Shown here: positions 4,861 through 22,354 of the stretch, one piece after another
Layout: every line of letters begins with the position of its first letter
How positions within the stretch are numbered: the first letter of the stretch is position 1
Assembly: GCA_965140935.1 (NCBI GenBank)
Contig: CBCSLL010001906.1
Location: 1-22,354 of the forward strand
Reading direction: 5' to 3'
Length of the DNA stretch: 22,354 nt
Origin: Rotaria magnacalcarata
Lineage: Eukaryota
Made by a program: the position numbers and the translations under genes
The notes under the pieces: generated by a model
What the model was told of the DNA's origin: nothing
Databases searched by the model: none
Seen by the model: the letters and a program-made list of their open reading frames with translations, nothing else

Positions 4861-5503
4861 GACCGTATTCGTGTGGCACTACGATTGATTTGAATTTTCA
4901 TTCAATATGATCAGAGTTACGTCAGTTTGAAATAATCTGTGATAAATTTTCCATGAATGACCTTTTTTTTCTTGTTTAAAAGAAAAAGTCCCATTTATCT
5001 TCCAGCAGTTTGCTTGCAATGCTCGGTTAAAAAAATGCTTTACAACACTACTGCCGTCTATTAAAAAAAACTTCCTACTCTATATTTTTCAGAATAACTT
5101 CTGGATTGATCTATGAAAGTAAAACCGATAAGTGTTTGTTTTTGTCGGTTGCATATTTGGTTGAAATTTTCTTCGTTTCTTATTTAGATGTAATTTTTAG
5201 ATAATTTATCGGAATGAGTAATTCTGAGGTTTCATTTTCAAACGCAATTCTATCCACTGCCGAATCAAACCTCCAAAATATTTGCCTATTGCTGCACTGC
5301 AAATAACCTTGAAAGCAAACAACTTAAAAAAATAAAAGCTTGTGCAAGAACACCAAGACGTAAGAGAGAGAGTGAAACATAGATTTTACCGCGATATTTG
5401 TTTTTCTTTTTTTCCTTTCTCTAACATGGGGCAAACTTGCACAATGCTTTGAAAAATACTTAATCATTCAACATGCAATACCATAGTCTTTATATTTTCA
5501 GTT

Positions 5504-5510
5504 TATAAAA
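5504..5510 (+). promoter_or_regulatory. Candidate TATA box (TATAAAA) about 70 bp upstream of the MVP1 ATG.
   Basis: GTTTATAAAAGAG motif in the 5' flank; the call rests on position alone. Confidence 0.2.
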
Positions 5511-5579
5511 GAGATTCAACGTTTTTTTCTTGCCTATAGATTGTTACTGACATACGAACATTCTACAAACACATACACA

Positions 5580-5767
5580 ATGAGTAAAGCAACAACTACG
5601 GATAAGAAAAGTGATTCCGGTCCACTTTATCGAATTCCTCCTTATTTTTATATTCATGTTTTGGATCAAAATACAAATGTTACGAGACTTGAAATTGGTC
5701 CCAAAACATTTATTAAACAAGACAATGAAACAGTCACCATCGGACCAGAAAAAATGATTACAGTACC
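5580..5767 (+). CDS. MVP: MVP1 exon 1 ([10 protein letters not shown]...EKMITVP, ends in phase 2).
   Basis: First ATG lies in frame with the ORF 5541..5804. Donor GTACGT is at 5768. The junction restores TVP|PRHYCV, identical to the human MVP motif. Confidence 0.65.
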
Positions 5768-8650
5768 GTACGTTGATAATTGTTATTCTAAGAAAAGACG
5801 ATGAAAGAAAGTAAAAATTTGGATGTTTTTTTAGGCCCCGTCATTACTGTGTTATTGAATCGCCTGTAGTACGCAATGATGCTGGCGAAGTTATTTTCGA
5901 TAAAAATGGACAAGCCAAACTTGTTCATGCTGACTTGGAAATTCGGCTTTCACAACCTGATCAATCACCTTTTCCTCTCTATCCCGGTGAAATTCTTCGT
6001 CAAGTATAAAGAAACATTCAAAATTTTCTATTGAGAATAAAATAAAACTACTTTTTATGTTTGTTCTATTTTAAAGCCTGTTACTCCATTAAAAGTTGTT
6101 CCTGCTAATTCAGCATTACGCTTAAAGGCTGTCCTAGATTTTCAAGATGAAGCAGCAGATGAACAACGTCGGGCTGGAGATGAATGGTTATATGAAGGAC
6201 CAGCTACTTATATTCCTCGTAAAGAAGTTAGCGTTGAAGAACAAATTCGTGCTACAGTTATCTCGTCTAATCAAGCTATAAGGCTTTGCGCAAAAAAGGA
6301 AATCGTTGATCGTACAGGCCAACGACGTGTTACTGGTGAAGAATGGTTAATTAAAAAGACCGGTGCATATTTACCACTTGCATATGTAAGTGCAAATCTC
6401 GTCGGTATGCGAAATACTAATCTTGTTATTTTTAGGAAACTGTGGTTTCAGTAGAAAATGCTTATGTATTAACCGATAAAAAGGCTCTTCATCTTTGTGC
6501 ATTAAAAACTTTTACAGATAATTTCGGTAAAGAACGTATGAACGGTGAAGAATGGCTTGTAACACTTGCTGACACTGAAACACATATTCTTAGTGTCTAT
6601 GAACAATTAGTTTCTGTTGTTAATGTAGTAACATTAACATCACGTCAATATTGTGTTATAATCGATCCAGTTGCTGACGGAAAACCACAATTAGGGAAAA
6701 AAGCAAGTTTTTATCTCAATGAAATCAGAGAGATTAATTATGTTGATTTCTTTCTTTCGTAGAAACTTGTTGTCGGTGAAAAATCATTCTTTCTTCAACC
6801 CGGTGAAAAACTTCAAAATGGTATTCAAGATGTTTTTATCTTAGGTGAAGATGAAGGTGTTATTCTAAAATGTATCGAAGCATTTAAAGATACACAAGCT
6901 AATGTTAATCGAAATCCCGGCGATCGTTGGATGATTCGTGGTCCAACGTAAGATATTTAATGTCTCTATGAAAGGTCTAAATTAATATTATTCTTGTAAA
7001 TTTTAGTGAATATATACCTCCAACACAAGTTGAAGTTGTGACACGTCGAAAAGCTTTGCCATTAGATGCCAATGAAGGTATCTATGTTCGTGATATCAAA
7101 ACTGGTTGTGTCCGTGCCGTCATTGGCGAAACTTATATGTTAACACAAGATGAAGAATTATGGCAAAAAGAATTGCCTAAGAAAGTTGAAGAATTATTAT
7201 CTCGTGATGCTTTAAGTGAACGAAATGTTCTCACGCGAAGTCAAACATCAGATAAAAATCAATCTCAACAACAAGCAGCAACAACAACAACAAGTTCAAA
7301 CGTAAATGTTGCCAAACGTGATAAATCAAAACTAGTTACCTATCGTGTACCACACAATGCCGCTGTACAAATTTATGATTATAAAGCTAAGAAAGCACGT
7401 ATTATATTCGGCCCTGAACTTGTTATGCTTGGACCCGATGAACATTTTACATTACTTTCATTGAGTGGTAGTGTACCAAAAAAACCAAATCAAATTCAAT
7501 CACTTTGCTTACTTCTTGGACCAGACTTTTTTACTGATGTCATTGTTATTGAAACAGCTGATCATGCTCGTCTTTCACTTCAACTTTCATACAATTGGCA
7601 TTTTGAAATATCAGATATTGAAGACGACAAAGAAGCATCCAAACTGTTTTCTGTACCAGATTTTGTTGGTGATGCAGCTAAAGCTATAGCGTCACGTGTT
7701 CGTGGTGCTGTTGCTGGTACACAATTTGATGATTTTCATAAGAATTCAGCTCAAATTATTCGTACGTCTGTATTTGGTCTTGATGCAAATCAAAAAATAC
7801 GAGAAAACTTTACTTTTCCACAAAACAATCTTGTCATTACATCGATTGATATTCAAAGTGTTGAACCTGTGGATCAACGAACACGAGATGCTCTTCAGAA
7901 GAGTGTTCAATTAGCTATTGAAGTAAGATAAAAGACTATCGATTGAATTGTGATGATTAATTTCCGTGTATGTCTACATTTTAGATTACAACAAATTCAC
8001 AAGAAGCTGCAGCTAAGCATGAAGCTTCGCGTCGAGAACAAGAAGCAAAAGGTTTACTAGAACGTCAACGTATTAAAGATGATGCTGAAGCTGAAGAGGT
8101 TCGAAAACAACTTCTCCTGTTACAAGCTGAATCATCGGCTGTTGAAGTCACAGGGCAAGCTAAAGCCGAAGCACAAAGTCGAGCTGAATCTGCTCTCATT
8201 GAAGGACGAGCATCTGTTGAACAAGGTATAAATATTTTATTTTTCCAATGGAATTCAATAAGTGAATTTTTCTTTTGTTTAGCTCGTCTCAGGGCTGACG
8301 CTGCACGAATTGAAGCCGAAGCTGAAATATCACGCCTACAATTGGCACGCGAAGCTGAAATTAACTATTTACGTGAACAGAATGAATTAGAAATTACTAA
8401 AAAGGCTGAAATGTCACGTATTGAAACCGACAAATTCAAATTACAAGTTGAATCAATCGGTGCATCAACAATACAAGCCATTGCAACTTCAGGTCCAGAT
8501 ACACAAGTTAAACTTTTACAAGCGCTCGGTCTTCAGTCCATGTTGGTTACTGATGGTCATTCACCTATCAATCTAATGGGCTTTGGACAAGGACTTTTAG
8601 GTGGTTTAAATGCAAATACAATTAGCAATGCGGGTGGAGCACCTAATTAA
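5580..8650 (+). CDS. MVP: Major vault protein gene, paralog 1 (gene span). Exon model: join(5580..5767,5835..6003,6077..6385,6436..6702,6763..6947,7007..7922,7985..8225,8283..8650), 2643 nt, 880 aa.
   Basis: The translation matches MVP hallmarks along its whole length. N-terminus: [37 protein letters not shown]. Vault repeats: [46 protein letters not shown]. Shoulder/cap: [84 protein letters not shown] coiled-coil tail follows. All splice junctions keep the frame. Introns are GT-AG except one probable GC-AG, and the gene ends at TAA 8648-8650. Confidence 0.85.
5835..6003 (+). CDS. MVP: MVP1 exon 2 ([56 protein letters not shown]).
   Basis: Acceptor tttttttag|G is at 5834/5835; donor GTATAA is at 6004. 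Confidence 0.6.
6077..6385 (+). CDS. MVP: MVP1 exon 3 (PVTPLKVV...[17 protein letters not shown]).
   Basis: Acceptor ttttaaag|C is at 6076/6077; donor GTAAGT is at 6386. Confidence 0.65.
6436..6702 (+). CDS. MVP: MVP1 exon 4 ([20 protein letters not shown]...[13 protein letters not shown]).
   Basis: Acceptor atttttag|G is at 6435/6436. The exon ends before GCAAGT at 6703. The ORF-track tail [19 protein letters not shown] is intron read-through. Confidence 0.55.
6763..6947 (+). CDS. MVP: MVP1 exon 5 ([30 protein letters not shown]...[13 protein letters not shown], ends in phase 2).
   Basis: Acceptor ttcgtag|A is at 6762/6763; donor GTAAGA is at 6948. The frame continues from exon 4 only if the 60-nt GC-AG intron is removed. 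Confidence 0.55.
7007..7922 (+). CDS. MVP: MVP1 exon 6 ([30 protein letters not shown] ... SVQLAIE), 916 nt.
   Basis: Acceptor aattttag|T is at 7006/7007; donor GTAAGA is at 7923. The ORF-track M at 7038 is a GTG artefact. The exon carries a Q/T-rich low-complexity insert ([24 protein letters not shown]). Confidence 0.7.
7985..8225 (+). CDS. MVP: MVP1 exon 7 ([80 protein letters not shown], ends in phase 1).
   Basis: Acceptor cattttag|A is at 7984/7985; donor GT is at 8226-8227. Confidence 0.65.
8283..8650 (+). CDS. MVP: MVP1 exon 8 ([103 protein letters not shown]...GAPN*).
   Basis: Acceptor tttgtttag|C is at 8282/8283; stop TAA is at 8648-8650. The exon overlaps ORF 8342..8650, whose M is a TTG artefact. 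Confidence 0.65.
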
Positions 8651-9395
8651 TGCATTGAAGAAAATTATTAGATAAAACTTTCTTTTTTGTTGAAGAAGAA
8701 CAATAATTTTTGTCCGTTCCTTCGTGTTTTCGTATGAATAATTTAACTATATAAGTGCACTCTACTTATTGTGTAGTTCATGTATGAATAATAGACTGTG
8801 ATGATCATCATAAGAAACAATTTTTTCACTACCTAGCTATTATCTACTTCCTAGCTCTTTTCAAAATGTATTGAAAAGTGCTTCAAAAATAGGCACCCCA
8901 TGGCGATGTATTTCTTCACTTCACCTTGACAATTCCGATGTTTTTATTTTATAGCTTGTCAATACCTCGAAAATTCAATGTGATAAGTGCATTTATTTTA
9001 AATTAAAGTTTAGTATTCCAGTTCGAAAAAACAACGTAAGAGTGTGAGAGCGACTTTCGTGATTTGTTGAGTCATCGGCAGAAACTAGATTGAAATCCCA
9101 TGTTTCAATTAATTTACAAATACTTCACTTGAAATAAAAATCCACTCAGAAAAGTTATCAATAGTTGGGAGACAATTTTTGGAGGCTCGTCGGAACTTTC
9201 CTTTTGTTAGAATATTCGTTGTATTGACTGAGTCACGCTTGAGAAGTCTCCCTCGTAAGATTTACTCTTCCCAAATGTGTTTTGTGTTGTTTAGCACATT
9301 TACAATGTCATTTGAATAGACGCTAAATTTGTTGAATACTAAATTAAATCGAATCAGATTCATAACTGAAATACGCGAAGCAGCAATCGAATGTA

Positions 9396-9403
9396 CTCTA
9401 GAA
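9396..9403. repeat. Left 8-bp target-site duplication (CTCTAGAA) of the hAT-like MITE.
   Basis: An identical octamer directly abuts both TIRs (9396-9403 and 10079-10086). Confidence 0.7.
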
Positions 9404-10078
9404 CAGAGATGCCAGATGTGAAAGTCGAAAATCCGGAAAATTCCGGAATTGTTTTTTCAGAATCCGGAAAAAATCCGGAAAGGTTTTCAAGGATCAATTT
9501 TAGTCACGTAAAGGACATCTTTCTCAGTTAAATTATAAATAGCTTTGTATATTTTCGCAAAATAAAACATACTGTAATTACACAAAAATAAAAATAAACA
9601 GCTAAATGTTGCCAATTTATAGAAAATAACTTAGAAATTACACAATTTGAAGTTAATTAGCACGTTGTTTTTTGGCACAATATTTTTCATTAGAATGAAT
9701 AGGTTTCAGCAGTTCCGGTTTTGATAAAAAAAATTATAAATTTCTGTACATGATAAAGATGAGTTAAAACGAATTTTAAATTCAGCTGCAACAAGTTTCA
9801 TTGACATACGATTTCGGTTATCATCGTATAGATGCTTCATGGCTGAAAAAACACTTTCAACAAATGCATTGCTACATGGAATAGAGATAAGGTCACCAAT
9901 AGAAGAAAATATTAAATCTCTACTGAATTATTCACAATTTAGAATGCTAAAACAAATGAAATAAAACTGAAATAAGAAATCGCTAAAATCCGGAAAAAAT
10001 CCGGAAGCCGAAAAGTATCCGGAAAAACTTCAAAAATCCGGAATTTTTCCGGATTTTCCGGATCATCTGGCATCTCTG
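9404..10078. mobile_element. Non-autonomous hAT-superfamily MITE, 675 bp. It has a perfect 15-bp TIR (CAGAGATGCCAGATG ... CATCTGGCATCTCTG), subterminal (A)ATCCGGAAAA repeats at both ends, no ORF, and an AT-rich interior.
   Basis: Both TIRs were read directly and are flanked by a perfect 8-bp direct repeat (CTCTAGAA). An 8-bp TSD and a CAGAG-type terminus are the hAT signature, and the TSD fits the nTnnnnAn preference. At least 5 ATCCGGAA(A) motifs lie within ~80 bp of each end. Confidence 0.75.
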
Positions 10079-10086
10079 CTCTAGAA
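10079..10086. repeat. Right 8-bp target-site duplication (CTCTAGAA) of the hAT-like MITE.
   Basis: See the left TSD. Confidence 0.7.
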
Positions 10087-10442
10087 TCAATCGAGGCTTT
10101 GCGTTTGTGTTTGCTTTGAAAATGATTTCATTTCAGGTAGAATAACATTTTCTCTTTTTTTTTATGTATCATACTCAACTTTCTCAATTACTTCAATAAA
10201 ATTAACATATATACGTATATCAAATTTTATTAAATTATTTTATTTTTCGAATGGAAAAAGCTATTTTCTGAGGTCACGCACATATATTAAAAATAATAAG
10301 TATAAAACAATGTTCTGTCCTTCTTACAAAGAAACATGTGTTTTTATTTTAAGAATCTGACTAATGTCTTGTGTCTAAACTGGACATAGAAATTCAAATT
10401 TTATGAGTTTTGTTTTTTCTTGATCGATTTGTTCTCAATCGT

Positions 10443-10448
10443 TTTATT
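10443..10448 (-). promoter_or_regulatory. AATAAA polyadenylation signal overlapping the MVP2 stop codon (cAATAAAa). A second AATAAA lies about 100 nt downstream at ~10338-10343 (-).
   Basis: The minus-strand sequence reads ...CCACAAAGACAATAAAACGATTG. Confidence 0.3.
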
Positions 10449-10557
10449 GTCTTTGTGGTGTACCAACTAAATCAACGGCAGTATTGAAAAGATTAATTGG
10501 ACTGCGTCCATCAGTAATCAAAGTTGATTTAATACCAAGAGCTTGAAGAAGTTTAAC
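10444..10557 (-). CDS. MVP: MVP2 exon 14 ([37 protein letters not shown]).
   Basis: Acceptor tttag|G (ag = 10559,10558); stop TAA at 10446-10444. Confidence 0.6.
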
Positions 10558-13500
10558 CTAAATAATGAGAGAGGAAAAAACAAGCAGTTAGTAAAGTGTA
10601 GCACGAATTCTTATTAAGATAAAATCTTACTTGATTATCGGGTCCGCTAGTAGCAATAGCTTGAATAGTTTTTGGACCGATAGCAGCAACATGCTCTTTG
10701 AATTCTGAAATTTCAATATCGGCTAATCGTTTTGCTTTTTCTATTTCTAAATTAGCTGTCGACGTTGAATAATGTAATTCAAGTTGGCGTGCTTGCGTTA
10801 AACGTATAAGTTCAGCATCAGATTCAATCTTTGAAGCTTGTGCACGAAGTGTAGCTGAAAAAGAGAAAAGAGAACATATAATATATATATATATCGATAC
10901 AGATGTTCAATATGCGACATACCTTGATCAACAGCAGCTGCACCTTCGATTTTAGCTGCTTCTGCTCTTGATTGAGCTTCAGCGCGTGATTGACCGGTGG
11001 TTTCAACAGCAGATGACAGTGCTTGAAGTTCTAATAATTTTCGTCGTTCCTTTTCAGCTATAAAAATGAAAAGGTTTACGATTCCAATTTCACATAGAAT
11101 AAAATTCTACCTTCTGCTTCATCAGCAATTTTCTGTCGTTCTAAATGACCCTTTGCTTCTTGTTCTGTGCGTGAAGCTAAATGTCTATAGGAAAAACGAA
11201 GCAAATAAAAATTTGAAGTTCATTTTTTGTTAAACATACTTCGCTTGGGCTTCTTGTGAATTTGTTGTTATCTAAAATGGAGACATGCACGGAAATTAAT
11301 CATCACAATTCGATCGATAATCTTTTATCTTACTTCAATAGCTAATTGAACACTCTTCTGAAGAGCATCTCGTGTTCGTTGATCCACTGGTTCAACACTT
11401 TGAATATCAATCGATGTCAGAACCAAACTATTTTGCGGGAATACTAGTCTTTTTTTCACATGTTTATTTTCATCAAGACCGAATACTGAGCTTCGAATGA
11501 TTTTCGCAGAGTTCTTATGGAAATCATCGAATGAAATACCAGCAACAGTACCACGAATTTTAGCTGCTACAGCTTTACAAAAATCACCAATAAAATCTGG
11601 TACTGAAAAAAGTTTTGTAACTTCTTTTTGATCATTGGAATCATTAACCTAAAATAATAAAAAAAAAACAAAGATTTGCTTTCTTTTCTTTGTAAACTCT
11701 TATAATTCTTACCTCAAAATGCCAGTTATATGAAAGTCTGAGTGAAAGACGAGCATGATCACTTGATTCGATTGTTACAATATCACTTGAAAATTCGGGT
11801 CCCATTAGAAGACAAATAGCTCGAATCTTATTTGGTACTTTGGGTTTTTCACCGGATAAATTCAATATTGTGAATTGCTCATCTGGTCCGAGCATAACAA
11901 GTTCAGGGCCAAATACAATGCGTGCTTTTTTAGATTTGAAGTCATAAATTTGTACACAAGCATTGTGTGGAACTCGATAGGCAACTACTTTCGATTTATC
12001 TCTTGGTGGTATAGCTGTTTTTTGTGCTGATTTATCATCAAAACATCGAGCATCTTGATTGAGAAGTAGTTCAACTTGGGCAGGTAATTCTTTCTCCCAA
12101 AGTTCTTCATTTTCAGTCAATAAATATGTAGTGCCAATGACTGATCGAACTTTACCAGTTTTAACATCTCGAACATAAATACCTTCATTGACATCTAATG
12201 GTGTAGCTCTACGTCGGAGTACTACTTCCGATTCGACAGCTGGAATATAGTCTTTAGGTCCTCGGATCATCCAACGATCACCAGGATTACGTAGGACCGT
12301 CTATAAAAACAATCAATCGGATACAATTGATAAATAAAAATTTCACAAAACCTATTAACTTACTCCATCTTCTTTAAACGATTCAGTACAACGAAGAATG
12401 AGTCCTTCATCGTCTTCAAGAACATAGACATCCTGAATACCTTTAGCTAATTTTTCACCGGGTTGAAGAAAGAATGTTGTTTCTCCCTTTAGAAAATCGA
12501 AAGATTTAAAATTTAAAATTCATATGATTCTAATTTATCATACTTTAACAAGCTTTTTCTTTCCAAGTTGCGGTTTACCATCTGAACCAACAGGATCAAT
12601 AATAACAGCGTATTGACGAGAATTTAATACAGTTACTGCTACAACACCAACAACCTAAATATTTTATTCATTATTTTTCATCTACGAAATAAACATATTT
12701 AATTATATCTACCTCTTCAAAAACATCTGGAATATATGTTTCAGCATCACGGGCATATACAAGCCATTCTTCTCCATTGAGACGTTTATGTTTGAATGAA
12801 TCAATAAATGTGCCCAATGCTCGTAAATGAAGAGCTTTCTGGAAGAAGAAAAAAGGGCAATAAAATAAATATATCATGAAAAAAGACGACTGATTCCTAA
12901 GAACACATACTTTGTCAGTTAGTACATAGGCTTTAACTGTTGAAACAACTTCTTCGTAAGCTAATGGTAAGTATGAGCCAATAGTACGATTAAGCCATTC
13001 TTCGCCTGTTTCGCGTGCAATTCCATCGCGGTCAACCATCTCTTTTTTCGCACGTAAACGAACAGCTTCGTTTGGTTTAAGAATAACAGCTTTTATTTGT
13101 TCTTCAACGCTAACTTCTTTACGTGGAAGATAAGTTCCTAGAAATAAATTTATTCGAAAATGTTTACTATTAAAAAATTTAGAATATTTTTGTTTTGCTA
13201 TTTTACCTGGTCCACAGAAGAGAAATTCATCTCCAGCACGTATCTGTTGATCATTCTCATCGGTAAAATCCAAAACCGCACGAAGGCGTAATGCACAGTT
13301 AGGCTCAATAACTTTCAATGGTGTTACATTCTGTTTGAGTATTTCACCAGGATAGAGTGGAAATGGTTCTTGAGCAAATCGAATATCAACATCCGAATGT
13401 AACAACTTAACTTGACCATTAGAATCAATAACAACTTTCGCATTTTTATCACGAACAGCTGGATTTTCAACAACGCAATAATGACGAGGACTAGATAATT

Positions 13501-13790
13501 AGTTATACATAGAATTTTTTAATGAAATCAAAGAAAGAAAAACAACTTCAACATACGGAATTATTATCATGCGTTCTGGTCCAACGAGGACTTTTTCATG
13601 ATCTTGTTTAACAAATGTAAGTGGGCCAACTTCAAGTCGGCTTACATTTTTATTTTGATCGAGCACATGTAGATAGTAGAAAGGAGGAACTCGGTAAACT
13701 AAAATTCAACGAAGAAAAAACAACGAGCATTGAATCTTAATGCAAAAGAATTAAAATATTCATACCACCGGTAACTTTTGAATCAGCCAT
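10444..13790 (-). CDS. MVP: Major vault protein gene, paralog 2 (gene span, minus strand). Exon model: complement(join(10444..10557,10631..10854,10923..11057,11111..11184,11240..11271,11334..11648,11713..12300,12364..12486,12544..12654,12713..12838,12911..13137,13207..13490,13557..13698,13766..13790)), 2520 nt, 839 aa.
   Basis: The spliced translation is [35 protein letters not shown] ... [11 protein letters not shown] ... [18 protein letters not shown] ... [11 protein letters not shown] ... ETGEEWL ... [19 protein letters not shown] ... [16 protein letters not shown] ... [20 protein letters not shown] ... [14 protein letters not shown] ... [12 protein letters not shown] ... [19 protein letters not shown] ... 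[30 protein letters not shown] ... [24 protein letters not shown] ... *. It is collinear with paralog 1 and with vertebrate MVP. All 13 introns are GT-AG of 53-73 nt, all junctions preserve the frame, and the total length is divisible by 3. Confidence 0.85.
10631..10854 (-). CDS. MVP: MVP2 exon 13 ([75 protein letters not shown]).
   Basis: Acceptor ttttcag (ag = 10856,10855); donor GTAAGA at 10630. Confidence 0.6.
10876..10894. repeat. (TA)n microsatellite inside an MVP2 intron.
   Basis: ATATAATATATATATATAT read directly. Confidence 0.7.
10923..11057 (-). CDS. MVP: MVP2 exon 12 ([45 protein letters not shown]).
   Basis: Acceptor tttatag (ag = 11059,11058); donor GTATGT at 10922. The intron contains a (TA)n microsatellite. 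Confidence 0.6.
11111..11184 (-). CDS. MVP: MVP2 exon 11 ([25 protein letters not shown]).
   Basis: Acceptor cctatag (ag = 11186,11185); donor GTAGAA at 11110. Confidence 0.55.
11240..11271 (-). CDS. MVP: MVP2 exon 10, a 32-nt micro-exon ([10 protein letters not shown] + first 2 nt of K).
   Basis: Acceptor cattttag (ag = 11273,11272); donor GTATGT at 11239. Its 5' portion lies in the block that is near-identical to MVP1. Confidence 0.55.
11334..11648 (-). CDS. MVP: MVP2 exon 9 ([105 protein letters not shown]).
   Basis: Acceptor tattttag (ag = 11650,11649); donor GTAAGA at 11333. Confidence 0.65.
11713..12300 (-). CDS. MVP: MVP2 exon 8 ([45 protein letters not shown] ... SYNWHFE), 588 nt.
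   Basis: The exon lies within ORF 11644..12270(-), whose tail [10 protein letters not shown]... is intron read-through. Acceptor ttttatag (ag = 12302,12301); donor GTAAGA at 11712. Confidence 0.7.
12364..12486 (-). CDS. MVP: MVP2 exon 7 ([41 protein letters not shown]).
   Basis: Acceptor ttctaaag (ag = 12488,12487); donor GTAAGT at 12363. Confidence 0.6.
12544..12654 (-). CDS. MVP: MVP2 exon 6 ([37 protein letters not shown]).
   Basis: Acceptor atatttag (ag = 12656,12655); donor GTATGA at 12543. Confidence 0.6.
12713..12838 (-). CDS. MVP: MVP2 exon 5 ([42 protein letters not shown]).
   Basis: Acceptor tcttccag (ag = 12840,12839); donor GTAGAT at 12712. Confidence 0.6.
12911..13137 (-). CDS. 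MVP: MVP2 exon 4 ([76 protein letters not shown]).
   Basis: Acceptor tttctag (ag = 13139,13138); donor GTATGT at 12910. Confidence 0.6.
13207..13490 (-). CDS. MVP: MVP2 exon 3 ([95 protein letters not shown]).
   Basis: Acceptor ttatctag (ag = 13492,13491); donor GTAAAA at 13206. The exon overlaps ORF 12671..13405(-). Confidence 0.6.
13557..13698 (-). CDS. MVP: MVP2 exon 2 ([48 protein letters not shown]).
   Basis: Acceptor gaattttag (ag = 13700,13699); donor GTATGT at 13556. Confidence 0.6.
13766..13790 (-). CDS. MVP: MVP2 exon 1 (MADSKVTG + 1 nt).
   Basis: ATG at 13790-13788; donor GTATGA at 13765. An alternative donor 3 nt upstream would give the same phase. Confidence 0.45.
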
Positions 13791-14963
13791 TTTTATTCTT
13801 TACTAGTAATGTGAATCTGAAACAGAATGACGGCAGTAGAAGAAGTCCTTTTTATGTATAGGTGAGAATGTCAACACAATCAGGGAATATTGTGTATGTG
13901 AAATAGAAAGAGAAGGGTTGTGTAGAGGGACTGACAAGTTTTCACCAACGTTATGAAATGACTGCAGATAAGATTGCAAGACTAAATAGCAATAACAACT
14001 AATGCATTGGCATATAACGAGGTTGATTTATTCTGCGTATAGAAAAAAAAGTAAGAGAAAATAGAGGGTTGAAAAACAGATTCTGCAGAGAGTGAATTGG
14101 AGAAGAACGCAAGAGCCCTTCATTTGACACTGAATATCTTTGCCTAGAAGAAAGAAATAAAATTTTATTTTCAATGCAACATGAAATTTTCTATATGAAT
14201 AATATGGATGTCACAAATATTCACAATAGAATGTATTGATGATGCAAATGCTCCAGTAGCTTGTAATAACCTTATTACTGTTTGACGATAAAACAGGTGT
14301 TAGAACGCTAACTTCGATAAAATACATGATAAAAATAGATCAAATTAATTGAAAGTAGTATTGAGAATTATTTTCTAAAAATATTCAACAAAGCAATGAA
14401 TTTGTGCTATACAATACAATTGAATGTTATAGTAAATAGAAATGACTTGCCTTCCATGTTAGAGTTAGCATCTTTTTTTAGTCAAAAATCACTATTCATT
14501 TTTATATTTGACCTCGAAAATATGAAACACGTTAGAGAAATAATACTCCTCAATAATTTGATTCGTTGTAAAAATGCACTAAAGAAACTAGAATAACAAG
14601 TTTATAGTATATAAATTGGTACCAACATTTTTCGTGTTGACTATTGTTTCAATACATCATTTATCTTCTGAATGACTTCTAATAGTAATGCCACATATTG
14701 TTTTCTTTTACAAACGCTTAAATAGTATTTTATTGAAAACATGATTTATTTATTTATTATCATTATTTTTCAATATCGTTGTGATTTAACAAATAGATTC
14801 ACGTAAATTCGCATAAAGTCGATTACAAATGTCAAACAAAAAACGTTCAATACGAACATAATAAATATATATTCTATTGTGTATGATAATATTCATTGTG
14901 ATGATGCATTAATTTGTCGATTAGAATACTATCACATTAAACTCGTATTTTTTTTTCGTCGGC

Positions 14964-18139: not shown

Positions 18140-19438
18140 TTTCAGAACAATGCTACCAACAAGTCAGGATTAAACTAAGAGTTTATCACCACTTGACTTG
18201 ACTTGGAAGCGAAGTTGACCGAAATCGACAATTACGAATACATATCTTTAATACTGATGAAGATCACAAAAGCAACTCAACAGTCTGAACTGTGATACAA
18301 TCCTAAAAACGTCAAAACCGACACCGATTTCAATGCGTATAAAAAAATTGAAATTGTATTCTTAACTTTCTGACGGAGGAAACAGTGAACCTTTTCTAAT
18401 ATAACCTATTTTAGATGAAATTCTCATTAATTTTAGAACATGTTTTCTCGTATTATTATGGAAATAATACTCCTGAAATCTTTAATGAGGGATGATATTG
18501 TTTGATGTCCTTCACATAGAATATTAACTGTTTAGTAGCCTAGTAGGAAGAGAAATGAATTAAATCCCTGTGGTTAATTTTTATTAAAACAAGACGACAA
18601 CAACAATGTTTATTTTCATTTAGATTACGTTCAATGTTGATATTTGTTAAAGTCACACGTTAACCACTAATCTATTCGTTTACAGCTCATTTAAAAAGAA
18701 TAAAATGTTCAATTGTCATTGTCCTCTACGAATATGTTGATAAACTTGGATAGAGTTTTTGCAGCAATGCATTTTATTAAAGCTACCTTAGGAATTATAC
18801 TACGACGATTCGAATCGCGCTTCGTACTGAACTATGGTAAACTATTGCATACGAAGTCTAAGCGTTTTATCAAGCATATGATTATGTTTACATACGAGAA
18901 TAATTGATGTCGTAAATTTTTCTTCGAGGTAGAGATTTTTAAACGCTTATTTGAATTGTTCTCATATATACCAGATTGTTCACATAATCGAGCTCAGATT
19001 AAAGATAGCAAGTCATTATTATTGTTTTTTCAATCACCGAGTTTCTAATTTTCTATTGATAAGTTGCATGGTGAACTAAGCATATTACTAATCTATACTG
19101 CTTTCGATTCATAATGAAGGACGTCAATGGGAAAAGATTATCATTATTCTATTCTTCAATGTCATGGTGTTTTATTTATTACAAACACATACAATTTTCA
19201 ATTGTAGTTGAATGAAAAATTTAGGATGAGGCAATCATTAAGAGAAATGAATTCTTAGGTATAAAAATCTGATACTCTTATTTGTTTTGACATCAAAAAT
19301 CAAGATACCCATGTCCATTTAAATTAATTTTTCATTGCTGCGATAGAGGAAAGATTTCTCTATCCGCTTAGGTTTGACCAAAAGTGCTGCAATTAAAAAA
19401 ACAAATTAAAGAAAAAGAGAAAGTTCGAGTATATATAT

Positions 19439-19912
19439 CAAGTTGAATTCTTTCTAACAATTTGTTGAGAGTTTTTTAGCTCTTCTTCGAAAAAACTTTC
19501 AGGTACCTTGGATGCCACATGAACTAATCATATTTCATTTATTCAATTAGTTAAAATACGTTCACTGGAATTGGTTAGCCAAAAATGACATAGTATCAGG
19601 CCTGGCGAATATGACGGATAAAACACTAAACAAAGTTTTCGTTAAAATCTGTCTTTATGAACAATAGTCGTTGGCGATTCATCTTCAATAAGCCAGCTAG
19701 CATCAGATGACACATGATTAGCCTATCTAAAATAAATCCATATCCCATCGCTAGTAGTGCTAGAACGCAACTGCCATGATCAAACGAAATTTCACTAAAT
19801 TTTTAAACCAATGAAATATGATTGGTCCATGTGGTATCCAAGGTGCCTAAAAGTTTTTTCGAAGAAGAGCTCAAACAACCGTTTAGCAAATTGTTAGAAA
19901 GGATTCAACTTG
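19439..19912. mobile_element. MITE-like element of 474 bp with ~100-bp terminal inverted repeats at ~88% identity (CAAGTTGAATTCTTTCTAACAATTTG... / ...CAAATTGTTAGAAAGGATTCAACTTG). It has no coding capacity and is flanked on both sides by (TA)n, so a TA target-site duplication is plausible, consistent with a Tc1/mariner-derived origin.
   Basis: The reverse complement of 19811-19912 aligns with 19439-19540 at ~88 of 101 positions. The termini are exact (CAAGTTGAAT). The flanks read TATATATAT|CAAG and CTTG|ATATATAT. Confidence 0.55.
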
Positions 19913-19946
19913 ATATATATGTTGAAGGGAAAATTAAAATTTTAAT

Positions 19947-20114
19947 CTCTCCTAGAGAAATTTGAAATCTTCCTCTTTCCTCTATATTTCCTATGAAGAA
20001 GCGAGCATTCTAACTTCACCTAGAGGAGATTACAATTTTTCTCTTTCCTGTGAATTTTATACGAAGAAGCGAGCGTTTTAATTTTCTCTATAGGGGAATT
20101 TTAAATTCTCCTAG
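19947..20114. repeat. Tandem repeat of a 67-bp unit, 2.5 copies at ~75% identity between copies: CTCTCCTAGAGAAATTTGAAATCTTCCTCTTTCCTCTATATTTCCTATGAAGAAGCGAGCATTCTAA / CTTCACCTAGAGGAGATTACAATTTTTCTCTTTCCTGTGAATTTTATACGAAGAAGCGAGCGTTTTAA / partial.
   Basis: Direct reading. The partial third copy ends in GGGGAATTTTAAATTCTCCTAG, which is also the left arm of an inverted repeat. Confidence 0.55.
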
Positions 20115-20418
20115 CAAACGATAAATGTATAATCTTTTACATGTTTGTTGTATTTCCTTGAAAACTATTGTATTATCTATCAAAATAATATAAAACACTT
20201 TCAACAATGTATAGTTTACATAAAAAACATTAGAAACAACTTAAAGACAACTGCAAAAATTATTCGATATTTTCACAGGCATGTTTTTTTTTTTGGTGAT
20301 TTTTCTCTCCATTTCAGTCAGTAGAGAGCGCGCGGTCACGTCGCTATTTAATTTTAATTTGGTAAGATACAGAAGAAGATTATACATTTATTGCTTACTA
20401 GGAGAATTTAAAATTCCC
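20094..20418. repeat. Perfect 21-bp inverted repeat (GGGAATTTTAAATTCTCCTAG ... CTAGGAGAATTTAAAATTCCC) bracketing 283 bp; possibly a second small MITE. The interior contains a T11 run and a GC-rich core (GAGAGCGCGCGGTCACGTCGC).
   Basis: The reverse complement of 20398-20418 equals 20094-20114 exactly. Confidence 0.4.
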
Positions 20419-22354
20419 TTCCAACATATAAAATCATGGCAACTATCATCAACATTAATAAAATAAAACTTTCTCTTTCTCTTTATTTGTTTTTTTTAAA
20501 TTGCAGAACTTTTGGTCAGACCTAAGTATGTGTAGGGCCTCTTGATCATGGAATTTGTTTTTATGTGTTGACTTGAAATAGGTAACATGAGGAGGTATAT
20601 ATACAAATGGAGTCACATCTTTCAGTATTAGCAGAAAGTAACCAAATATTATTTAAGTAGATTCTAGATTCCGTTCTGTAAATATCTGAATGTGAGTTAC
20701 CAAGTATTTTGCTAATATTACATTTTAGATCCCATTAACAAATAATTTGATATAAATTCTGTATCTAGAGATGGTAATTTTTACTTTTAAAGTTAAGGCT
20801 ATACTACCACTTCTATCCGAATATTGAGTGAGCAGATGAAATTAAAGACATGATGAATAGTGAGCAAGAAAAGCTCGGTTTGGAATCTCTTATCGGGAAT
20901 TCTTCTGTTTCTAATTACAATCTTTCTTGGATTAAGTTGAACCTGAAATCAAGTACATTATGAGTGGAAGAGCAGGGTGTTATCGCTAAACAGATTTATA
21001 CATACAAATGACCAGCCATGAATGGCGCCTCGGACTAGTATCGACGAGCGCTTTAGGTTGAGGTGACCAACAAGAAAACTTGCTGTGATGTAGATCTATT
21101 GAAAGTTCAGAAAGTGAACAGAACTCTGGAAAAACCAACAAAGATTATTGAGCAAACTCTGCGATCAGTTATTCTACAATCGTAGCAATATCACTTAGAA
21201 TTTAGATTCGACCAAATTAAAAGTAGATTTACATGAAATAAAATTTGCTTTTCTCTCGGTATGTGACTTTACCGGTTCACAATTGTAAACCGGTAGAAGT
21301 ATTTGGCTATATTCAGCTAAACTATCTAATTCCATGGTCATTTTACGTGGGAATGTAATTCATAGCTAAGGAGCGAATCGGAAGCCTCAGCATCTTTTAT
21401 TGGGTACTTCGAATTGATTATAGACTTGGAATGAGATTTATTAGCATTAGAATTGAATATTCAATAATTCCAGTCGTAGTAATATCTGATCTCAAAAATA
21501 ACCATATTGTTAATATGTAATGGAACGGAGTATACTATCAGAAATGCATCCAAGAACTTTAAATAGCAAAACGATTTTGTGATTTCTATCAATTTTGTAT
21601 GAAAATTAGAAAAAAACCCTTCATTGTCGATAATGACACGAGGGTTAAGATCATATCACTCAATTTGTTAACTAATATGATTTGTGGAGTTTAAGTTTAG
21701 ACGAACAGGATGTTTTCGTAACCACGTTTCTTAGAGAAAAGGTGTTTGAATTTGATATTTGACAACGATCGACACAAAATACCCTTTTTTATACATATTT
21801 GGACAATACTCAGTTTGTTGTTAGTTACTCATCGGAAATCTTTTAATTATAAATGAGTTACGTTTGTGAAATAGTCGAAAAATGAATCGATTGCATTGAT
21901 TGTAGTCTACGAGAATTTTATTGATGAAGTATTACAAAAAAAAACACGGGTCTACTAGAAAAATTCTGCGATTATTAATCTAACATTTATATTTGAATTA
22001 ATGGCGTCAATCTGCTAGTTTTTTTTAACGGAGAGATGTATTCGAATTGAATCAAGTAAGTGTTAGGTTTCTTTATCTATTTAAACATACACACTTGCAT
22101 GCATATATTTGCATCAGAGAACGAGAACGAACCGTACCAACTTAAACAAAATGTAGATAAACCGAACGGAGCTCGAATTAGAAAAACACAGTTCGATTTT
22201 TATGTGTAATCTATGAGTGCGTGTAGGCTAGTTTGAGTTTTAGGTTCACAGCTCTCATGGGTGACTGTTTTTCTTCGTTTTATATCGAGCTTATTGAAAT
22301 TTTTTCTGGACGTTGTTCATGCTTCATTATTTGGGATTGCTTGGGGATACTTGC

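Follow-up and report, generated by a model that had tools for sequence, protein, structure and literature searches.

How do two genes whose silent sites are saturated come to share coding and intronic sequence almost base for base? This question is raised by the window analysed here, i.e., the whole stretch of 22,354 nt (positions 1 to 22,354 of contig CBCSLL010001906.1, assembly GCA_965140935.1) from the bdelloid rotifer Rotaria magnacalcarata, in which two convergent (tail-to-tail) major vault protein genes, MVP1 on the forward strand and MVP2 on the reverse strand, have a block of 169 bp in common. An earlier reading of the letters alone (referred to as the sequence-only reading) had taken this block for the trace of a recent non-allelic gene conversion between the inverted copies. 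Comparison with other bdelloid genomes bore out conversion, in that the block is alike within genomes and diverged between species. Judged from these sequence comparisons, the block very probably reflects recurrent non-allelic (interlocus) gene conversion between the inverted MVP paralogs, confined to a homology island of about 160–190 bp.

An identity island in two diverged genes

Over most of their length the two genes are strongly diverged, with proteins that are 65.8% identical, aligned coding sequences (CDS) that are 68% identical at the nucleotide level, and remaining blastn blocks that comprise exons only (66–83% identity). In contrast, a recount of 7839–8007 against the reverse complement of 11249–11417 returned the 163 of 169 matches (96.4%) originally reported, in an ungapped alignment on the diagonal p to 19256 – p, which contradicts the possibility that the tract is no more similar than the flanking exons. 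The recount of the enclosed intron (7923–7984 versus the reverse complement of 11272–11333) likewise reproduced 58 of 62 matches, compared with a shuffle mean of 40.2 (standard deviation 2.4). Four of the six mismatches between the copies are intronic and two are synonymous (7868, 7936, 7944, 7969, 7976, and 7987). Identity is lost within a few bases on either side of the tract, and an inverted-repeat search lengthened the match to 207 nt at 90%.

Part of the accompanying description had to be amended. The introns of the two genes (7 in MVP1 versus 13 in MVP2) had been said to differ in position and to be unalignable; three positions are in fact common to both genes, i.e., at amino acid 62 (phase 2), amino acid 678 (phase 0, the tract intron), and amino acid 758 (phase 1). 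The other two shared introns match at chance level, at 38/67 positions (shuffle mean 38.7) and 38/68 positions (shuffle mean 39.5), respectively. The additional MVP2 intron on the 3′ side, placed about 24 nt downstream of the tract, actually begins only 9 nt from it, at 11239. The peptides flanking the tract on the 5′ side, described as the same, are similar but read QNNLVIT in MVP1 and QNSLVLT in MVP2.

The predicted island of low synonymous divergence (dS) was recovered with Nei–Gojobori counts. Across the 35 tract codons, 2 synonymous differences were found for 24 synonymous sites (proportion of synonymous differences, pS, 0.083) and no replacement differences, whereas the other 801 codons gave a pS of 0.60 (dS about 1.2) and a proportion of replacement differences (pN) of 0.25, i.e., saturated silent sites. 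The synonymous deficit of the tract relative to the rest of the CDS had a binomial P of 1.9e-7. The exon parts of the tract encode 28 residues and ITTNSQEA, respectively, and are near-invariant even in molluscs and cnidarians. This invariance of the peptide accounts for the absence of replacement changes, yet it leaves the identity at silent and intronic sites unexplained.

A second candidate conversion tract of 41 nt and 95% identity (6206–6246 and 13095–13135) was rejected because both paralogs retain the block in every species, so that it is not specific to this genome. It encodes TY(I/L) plus 11 residues, and across the seven genomes compared the block hardly varies in either paralog, silent sites included. 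GC-biased conversion left no signal either, since the third-position GC content (GC3) of the tract is 0.11 versus 0.17–0.18 elsewhere; the GC content of the tract intron (0.29–0.32) falls among the values of the other introns.

The pair and its tract across bdelloids

The loci compared were from R. socialis (L007–L009), Rotaria sp. Silwood-1 (L011–L013, L010, and the more distant L001), R. sordida (L014–L016), Adineta vaga (L017, from a chromosome-level assembly), Rotaria sp. Silwood-2 (L018–L020), and Didymodactylos carnosus (L021). The convergent MVP1/MVP2 pair was found in all six, with a gene spacing of 0.9–1.9 kb across loci, and the MVP2-only intron 3′ of the tract was present in every species examined. 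Because all sampled lineages carry the same convergent pair, the MVP1/MVP2 duplication is older than their split. In R. socialis, Silwood-1, R. sordida, A. vaga, and Silwood-2, the pair is flanked by genes annotated as Sad1/UNC and TPT transporter wherever the loci extend far enough; for the window, similarity revealed the TPT side alone.

The paralogs of each genome were aligned around the donor site of the tract intron, and maximal-scoring identity segments were extracted (Table 1). Within a genome, the two copies of the intron were identical in A. vaga (57/57) and Silwood-1 (56/56), and about 98% identical in R. sordida L016 (one difference in 54 nt). Between species, on the other hand, the orthologous tract introns were only 0.45–0.60 identical to those of R. 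magnacalcarata, compared with 0.34–0.79 for the other 18 MVP introns, and those of Adineta and Rotaria aligned at about 49–66%, the level of unrelated AT-rich introns. Orthologous pS was 0.17–0.50 in the tract exons versus 0.31–0.54 in the rest of the gene. This ordinary divergence of intron and silent sites between orthologs implies that the tract evolves at the usual pace from species to species, even as its two copies are made alike inside a genome. The cross-species comparison that the sequence-only reading had proposed for telling conversion from a functional element thus spoke for conversion, as the intron is not conserved between species, yet is identical or nearly so between paralogs of one genome.

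Neighbour-joining trees (200 bootstraps) of the tract and of the upstream exon region (–300 to –111) were discordant. The upstream region separated MVP1 from MVP2 in 200/200 replicates and grouped same-genome pairs in 0/200, whereas the tract gave the MVP1/MVP2 split in 0/200 and same-genome pairs in 200/200 for R. magnacalcarata, R. socialis, Silwood-1, and A. vaga, and in 168/200 for Silwood-2. This grouping by genome implies that at least six lineages each homogenised the same segment on their own, so that the single event originally envisaged gives way to a recurrent process.

The same data bear on whether a sequence-constrained element in the intron and exon ends (a small RNA, a mirtron, or a splicing enhancer) might be kept alike by purifying selection with no exchange at all. 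The identity does cover the branch region and pyrimidine tract, and the adjoining exon sequence is closely alike in all species. Nevertheless, such an element is highly improbable, since the intron varies between species like any other (that of Adineta being unrelated to that of Rotaria), orthologous tract exons accumulate synonymous changes at a normal rate, and the tract tree sorts by genome. An Rfam scan of 5000–14500 (E ≤ 1) returned nothing in the tract, its sole match being a palindrome at 9984–10058, and four versions of the intron folded no better than their shuffles (z = 0.33 to 1.04).

Allelic conversion between bdelloid homologous chromosomes was ruled out, as the copies are two different inverted genes on one contig, with 7 versus 13 introns. 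Moreover, the copies differ with a dS of about 1.2, and both genes are present in every species examined.

Some of the loci and contigs encountered need separate mention. An apparent loss of MVP2 at the Silwood-1 locus L012 was dismissed as a scaffold gap (a run of N). The Silwood-1 locus L001 carries a second convergent pair of MVP1-like and MVP2-like genes, with about 68% protein identity to the window genes and no tract; it is probably the other (ohnolog-like) member of a bdelloid whole-genome duplicate pair, in which case the MVP1/MVP2 duplication would predate the bdelloid whole-genome duplication. Three metagenome contigs (L002–L004, 8804–11566) hold a bdelloid-like MVP1-type gene with only two introns, lacking that at amino acid 678, and with no MVP2 neighbour within 10 kb, which may be a different, intron-poor MVP copy. 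A metagenome scan with the exon–intron junction yielded seven short contigs with one copy each, which could not be paired by species.

A conversion polymorphism and the age of the exchanges

Outside the tract, the MVP1 genes of two R. sordida assemblies (L014 and L016) are all but identical, with 4 differing sites in about 3.1 kb; in the MVP1 intron, by contrast, 16 differences fall within 53 nt (11343–11395 of these loci). In L016 this intron matches the MVP2 intron of both assemblies, whereas L014 retains an older form that is near the Silwood-1 intron. The two forms thus record a short MVP2-to-MVP1 conversion for which R. sordida is polymorphic.

While copying is possible in either direction in principle, the direction seen in R. 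sordida was MVP2 to MVP1, and no fixed crossover was found. Had a crossover taken place within the tract, the intervening 3.2 kb would have been inverted and the C-terminal exons exchanged; in all eight classified loci, however, the 5′ type of each gene is consistent with its 3′ signature, with no C-terminal swap.

The conversion had been called recent, which stands only in a relative sense. In R. magnacalcarata, 4/62 intronic and 2/24 synonymous sites differ between the copies, i.e., about 7% of the neutral tract sites (6 of about 86), so that the last homogenisation in this lineage is not very recent. Going by the orthologous pS of about 0.32, it is nevertheless younger than the split from the Silwood/R. 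sordida group.

An attempt to tie the freshness of the tract to desiccation tolerance met a mixed pattern and allowed no conclusion. R. magnacalcarata and R. socialis are classed as non-desiccating (PMC7943196), and their copies differ at 6/169 positions and at 4/88 positions of the exon part (with the intron 79% identical), respectively. Among the desiccating species, the copies differ at 1/159, 2/157, and 2/163 positions in three, but at 10/192 in Silwood-2; R. sordida also has an unconverted haplotype.

Tract limits, opposing evidence, and a possible mechanism

Some observations weigh against recurrent interlocus conversion. Two loci of the same layout, Silwood-1 L001 and D. carnosus L021, show no conversion signature, which means that the process is not universal. 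The tract ends lie within about 30 nt of each other across lineages, which random conversion endpoints would not predict. Finally, only one R. magnacalcarata assembly shows the MVP2 tract copy, as the contig L005 stops at 11020.

The last point would also suit an assembly artefact, in which reads of the two copies were merged or swapped to create a false island of identity. Two short-read assemblies indeed break their contigs inside the segment (L010 in the tract intron and L006 in the tract exon), although a true repeat would itself cause contig breaks there. The copies differ at six sites and are hence no simple collapse, and the same pattern recurs in assemblies of five other species, including the chromosome-level one of A. 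vaga, making an artefact very unlikely. L005 (4.7 kb, from a public R. magnacalcarata assembly) is 99.7% identical to the window over 6412–11020 and 100% identical over 7780–8060, and so repeats the MVP1 copy of the tract base for base, although it is possibly not independent of the window assembly.

Several sequence ends fall at the tract. The Silwood-1 contig L010 breaks off within the tract intron after about 50 nt, the MVP1 contig L006 of Adineta steineri ends in the tract exon (at ...QRTRDAL), and the A. vaga MVP2 protein P0133, annotated as partial, ends exactly at the end of the tract exon. The contig ends are consistent with an inverted repeat that breaks short-read assemblies.

With regard to the tract ends, the sequence-only reading had expected the boundaries of a conversion tract to vary among lineages, which they do only little (from –78 to –110 on the 5′ side and from +76 to +84 on the 3′ side of the donor). 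We infer that the shared ends stem from fixed heterology in the flanks, i.e., paralog differences and the MVP2-only intron. Specifically, the 5′ end would be set by dense paralog-specific differences, including an Ile/Leu codon, and the 3′ end by an Ala/Gln codon together with the MVP2-only intron (11239–11185).

The constancy of the ends might instead indicate that the tract is a maintained feature of the gene pair, either as the stem of a hairpin RNA for small-RNA regulation or as a preferred break or cruciform site that resets both genes. If true, this would account for the resetting of one and the same stretch of ~160 bp, between almost constant ends, in lineages as far apart as Adineta and Rotaria, but on the sequence comparisons made here it seems improbable. 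Quite improbable, too, is the more specific proposal that selection keeps the tract as an inverted repeat, with conversion only as the means, so that a read-through RNA with a 169-bp stem and a 3.2-kb loop would supply small RNAs regulating both genes. Homogenisation of the same segment with near-identical ends in at least six lineages would fit this proposal, as would the convergent orientation of genes just 0.9–1.9 kb apart. However, the fixed flanking differences and the MVP2-only intron offer a simpler cause of the common ends, diverged introns are tolerated in R. socialis, R. sordida L014, Silwood-1 L001, and D. carnosus, and the tract has no Rfam match.

Recurrent gene conversion between the MVP paralogs could be sustained as follows. 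The protein-level invariance of the exon ends would keep enough identity to seed homologous repair, in which a double-strand break would be mended with the inverted neighbouring paralog as a template, be it on the same chromatid, the sister, or the homologue. The intron between the conserved exon parts would be carried along, and every exchange would restore the identity that enables the next one. The hairpin or intrachromatid route named in the sequence-only reading would be plausible. Conversion appears to have stopped where identity decayed, i.e., at L001 (78% in the exon part) and in D. carnosus (86%).

Gene models and other features of the window

A translated exon of the window matched major vault proteins, with bdelloid rotifers nearest and R. 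magnacalcarata on top. The MVP gene models in Table 1 were built by enumerating GT/GC-AG junctions and fitting them to rotifer MVP proteins. The resulting MVP1 protein is 86–90% identical to Rotaria MVP1-type proteins, and the nearest relatives of the MVP2 protein are of the MVP2 type (Silwood-1, 90%; R. socialis, 86%; A. vaga, 85%). Exon 10 of MVP2 is only 32 nt long. MVP1 intron 4 (6703–6762) appears to be of the GC-AG type (GCAAGT ... TTTCGTAG), and P0001, the public gene model for R. magnacalcarata, has other junctions at this intron; P0001 also removes, as an intron, a low-complexity Q/T-rich insert of exon 6 (about 7220–7300).

Table 1. Coordinates of the MVP genes and tract copies in the window, and identity segments between paralogs of each genome (positions relative to the donor site of the tract intron)
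Feature	Position	Strand	Details
Putative conversion tract, MVP1 copy	7839..8007	+	last 84 nt of exon 6, all of intron 6, first 23 nt of exon 7
Putative conversion tract, MVP2 copy	11249..11417	-	last 84 nt of exon 9, all of intron 9, first 23 nt of exon 10
MVP1 intron 6	7923..7984	+	62 nt, phase 0, after amino acid 678, inside tract
MVP2 intron 9	11272..11333	-	62 nt, phase 0, position homologous to MVP1 intron 6
MVP2-specific intron 10	11185..11239	-	no MVP1 counterpart; starts 9 nt past tract end
MVP1 gene	5580..8650	+	8 exons, product 880 amino acids
MVP1 exons	5580-5767, 5835-6003, 6077-6385, 6436-6702, 6763-6947, 7007-7922, 7985-8225, 8283-8650	+	
MVP2 gene	10444..13790	-	14 exons, product 839 amino acids
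MVP2 exons 1-7	13790-13766, 13698-13557, 13490-13207, 13137-12911, 12838-12713, 12654-12544, 12486-12364	-	
MVP2 exons 8-14	12300-11713, 11648-11334, 11271-11240, 11184-11111, 11057-10923, 10854-10631, 10557-10444	-	
Segment, R. magnacalcarata	-84..+84 relative to donor		163/169
Segment, Silwood-1	-78..+78 relative to donor		155/157
Segment, Silwood-2	-110..+80 relative to donor		182/192
Segment, R. sordida L016	-86..+76 relative to donor		161/163
Segment, A. vaga	-78..+80 relative to donor		158/159
Segment, R. socialis	exon part only		84/88, intron 79%
Segment, R. sordida L014	exon part only		88/89, intron 83%
Silwood-1 L001	no segment		
D. carnosus L021	no segment		exon 86%, introns unalignable

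The stop codons of the two genes are separated by a spacer of 1.8 kb in the window. It holds an element of ~680 bp (9404–10081) with terminal inverted repeats (CAGAGATGCCAGATG ... CATCTGGCATCTCTG) and subterminal TCCGGAAAA repeats, within which no open reading frame of at least 50 amino acids was found, and which looks like a non-autonomous DNA transposon. Its palindromic end matched the Rfam family MIR8008 on both strands (9984–10058), below threshold (35 bits versus a gathering score of 66). The element may account for the length of the spacer compared with that of about 0.9 kb in R. socialis.

Further repeats were noted towards both ends of the window. A tandem array of at least 8 copies of a unit of about 19 nt (AGAATCAATGGAATCACGT and variants) occupies 223–400. 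Nested inverted repeats (pairs I7, I9, I10, I13, and I18) with arms of 27–80 nt and 74–93% complementarity lie at 19328–20499, together with a 68-nt tandem duplication (19939–20074); this nest may be a degraded mobile element.

Comparison with known systems

A literature search found no report of the MVP tract. MVP genes have been described as radiation-induced in A. vaga (PMC10809525). The locus would provide a compact and well-controlled example of concerted evolution, in which an island that includes an intron was reset repeatedly, both in Adineta and in Rotaria. Gene conversion is central to the debate on how apparently asexual bdelloids maintain their genomes, and the MVP pair would extend homology-directed exchange beyond homologous chromosomes to neighbouring paralogs, in non-desiccating as well as desiccating species. 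On a practical note, such islands can break short-read assemblies and mislead gene trees and paralog assignment.

Bdelloid gene conversion has been described between homologous collinear chromosome pairs (PMC3464624, PMC7943196). Like the MVP case, it concerns tracts of identity in diverged copies, in the same organisms, and is attributed to homology-directed repair. However, it involves copies of the same locus, whereas the MVP genes are two neighbouring inverted genes whose duplication predates the split of the sampled lineages.

Among same-chromosome paralogs, the human fetal globin genes HBG1 and HBG2 are direct repeats from a much younger duplication, with a converted block of kilobase size. 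They share with the MVP pair a sharply bounded block that is far more alike than its flanks and includes intron sequence, but the MVP genes are inverted and saturated at silent sites, and their block is only about 170 bp long. The RHD and RHCE blood-group genes, in turn, lie tail to tail and swap exon-sized segments in cis, giving polymorphic hybrid alleles with a changed protein. Opposite orientation, close proximity, and short segmental conversions without rearrangement of the locus are common to both pairs; in the MVP genes, however, the peptide encoded by the exchanged segment is invariant, and conversion has recurred in different genera.

The palindromes of the Y chromosome and the inverted Hsp70 pairs of Drosophila undergo arm-to-arm or concerted conversion that homogenises whole arms or whole genes. 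Here, the likeness lies in intrachromosomal conversion between inverted repeats, with copies that have long been alike and group by species, and the difference in the homogenisation, which in MVP is limited to a small island in genes that otherwise evolve independently. The MVP tract is a case of classical interlocus gene conversion and concerted evolution rather than a new kind of element, and what is distinctive about it is the small size of the island and its persistence, inside saturated paralogs, across genera.

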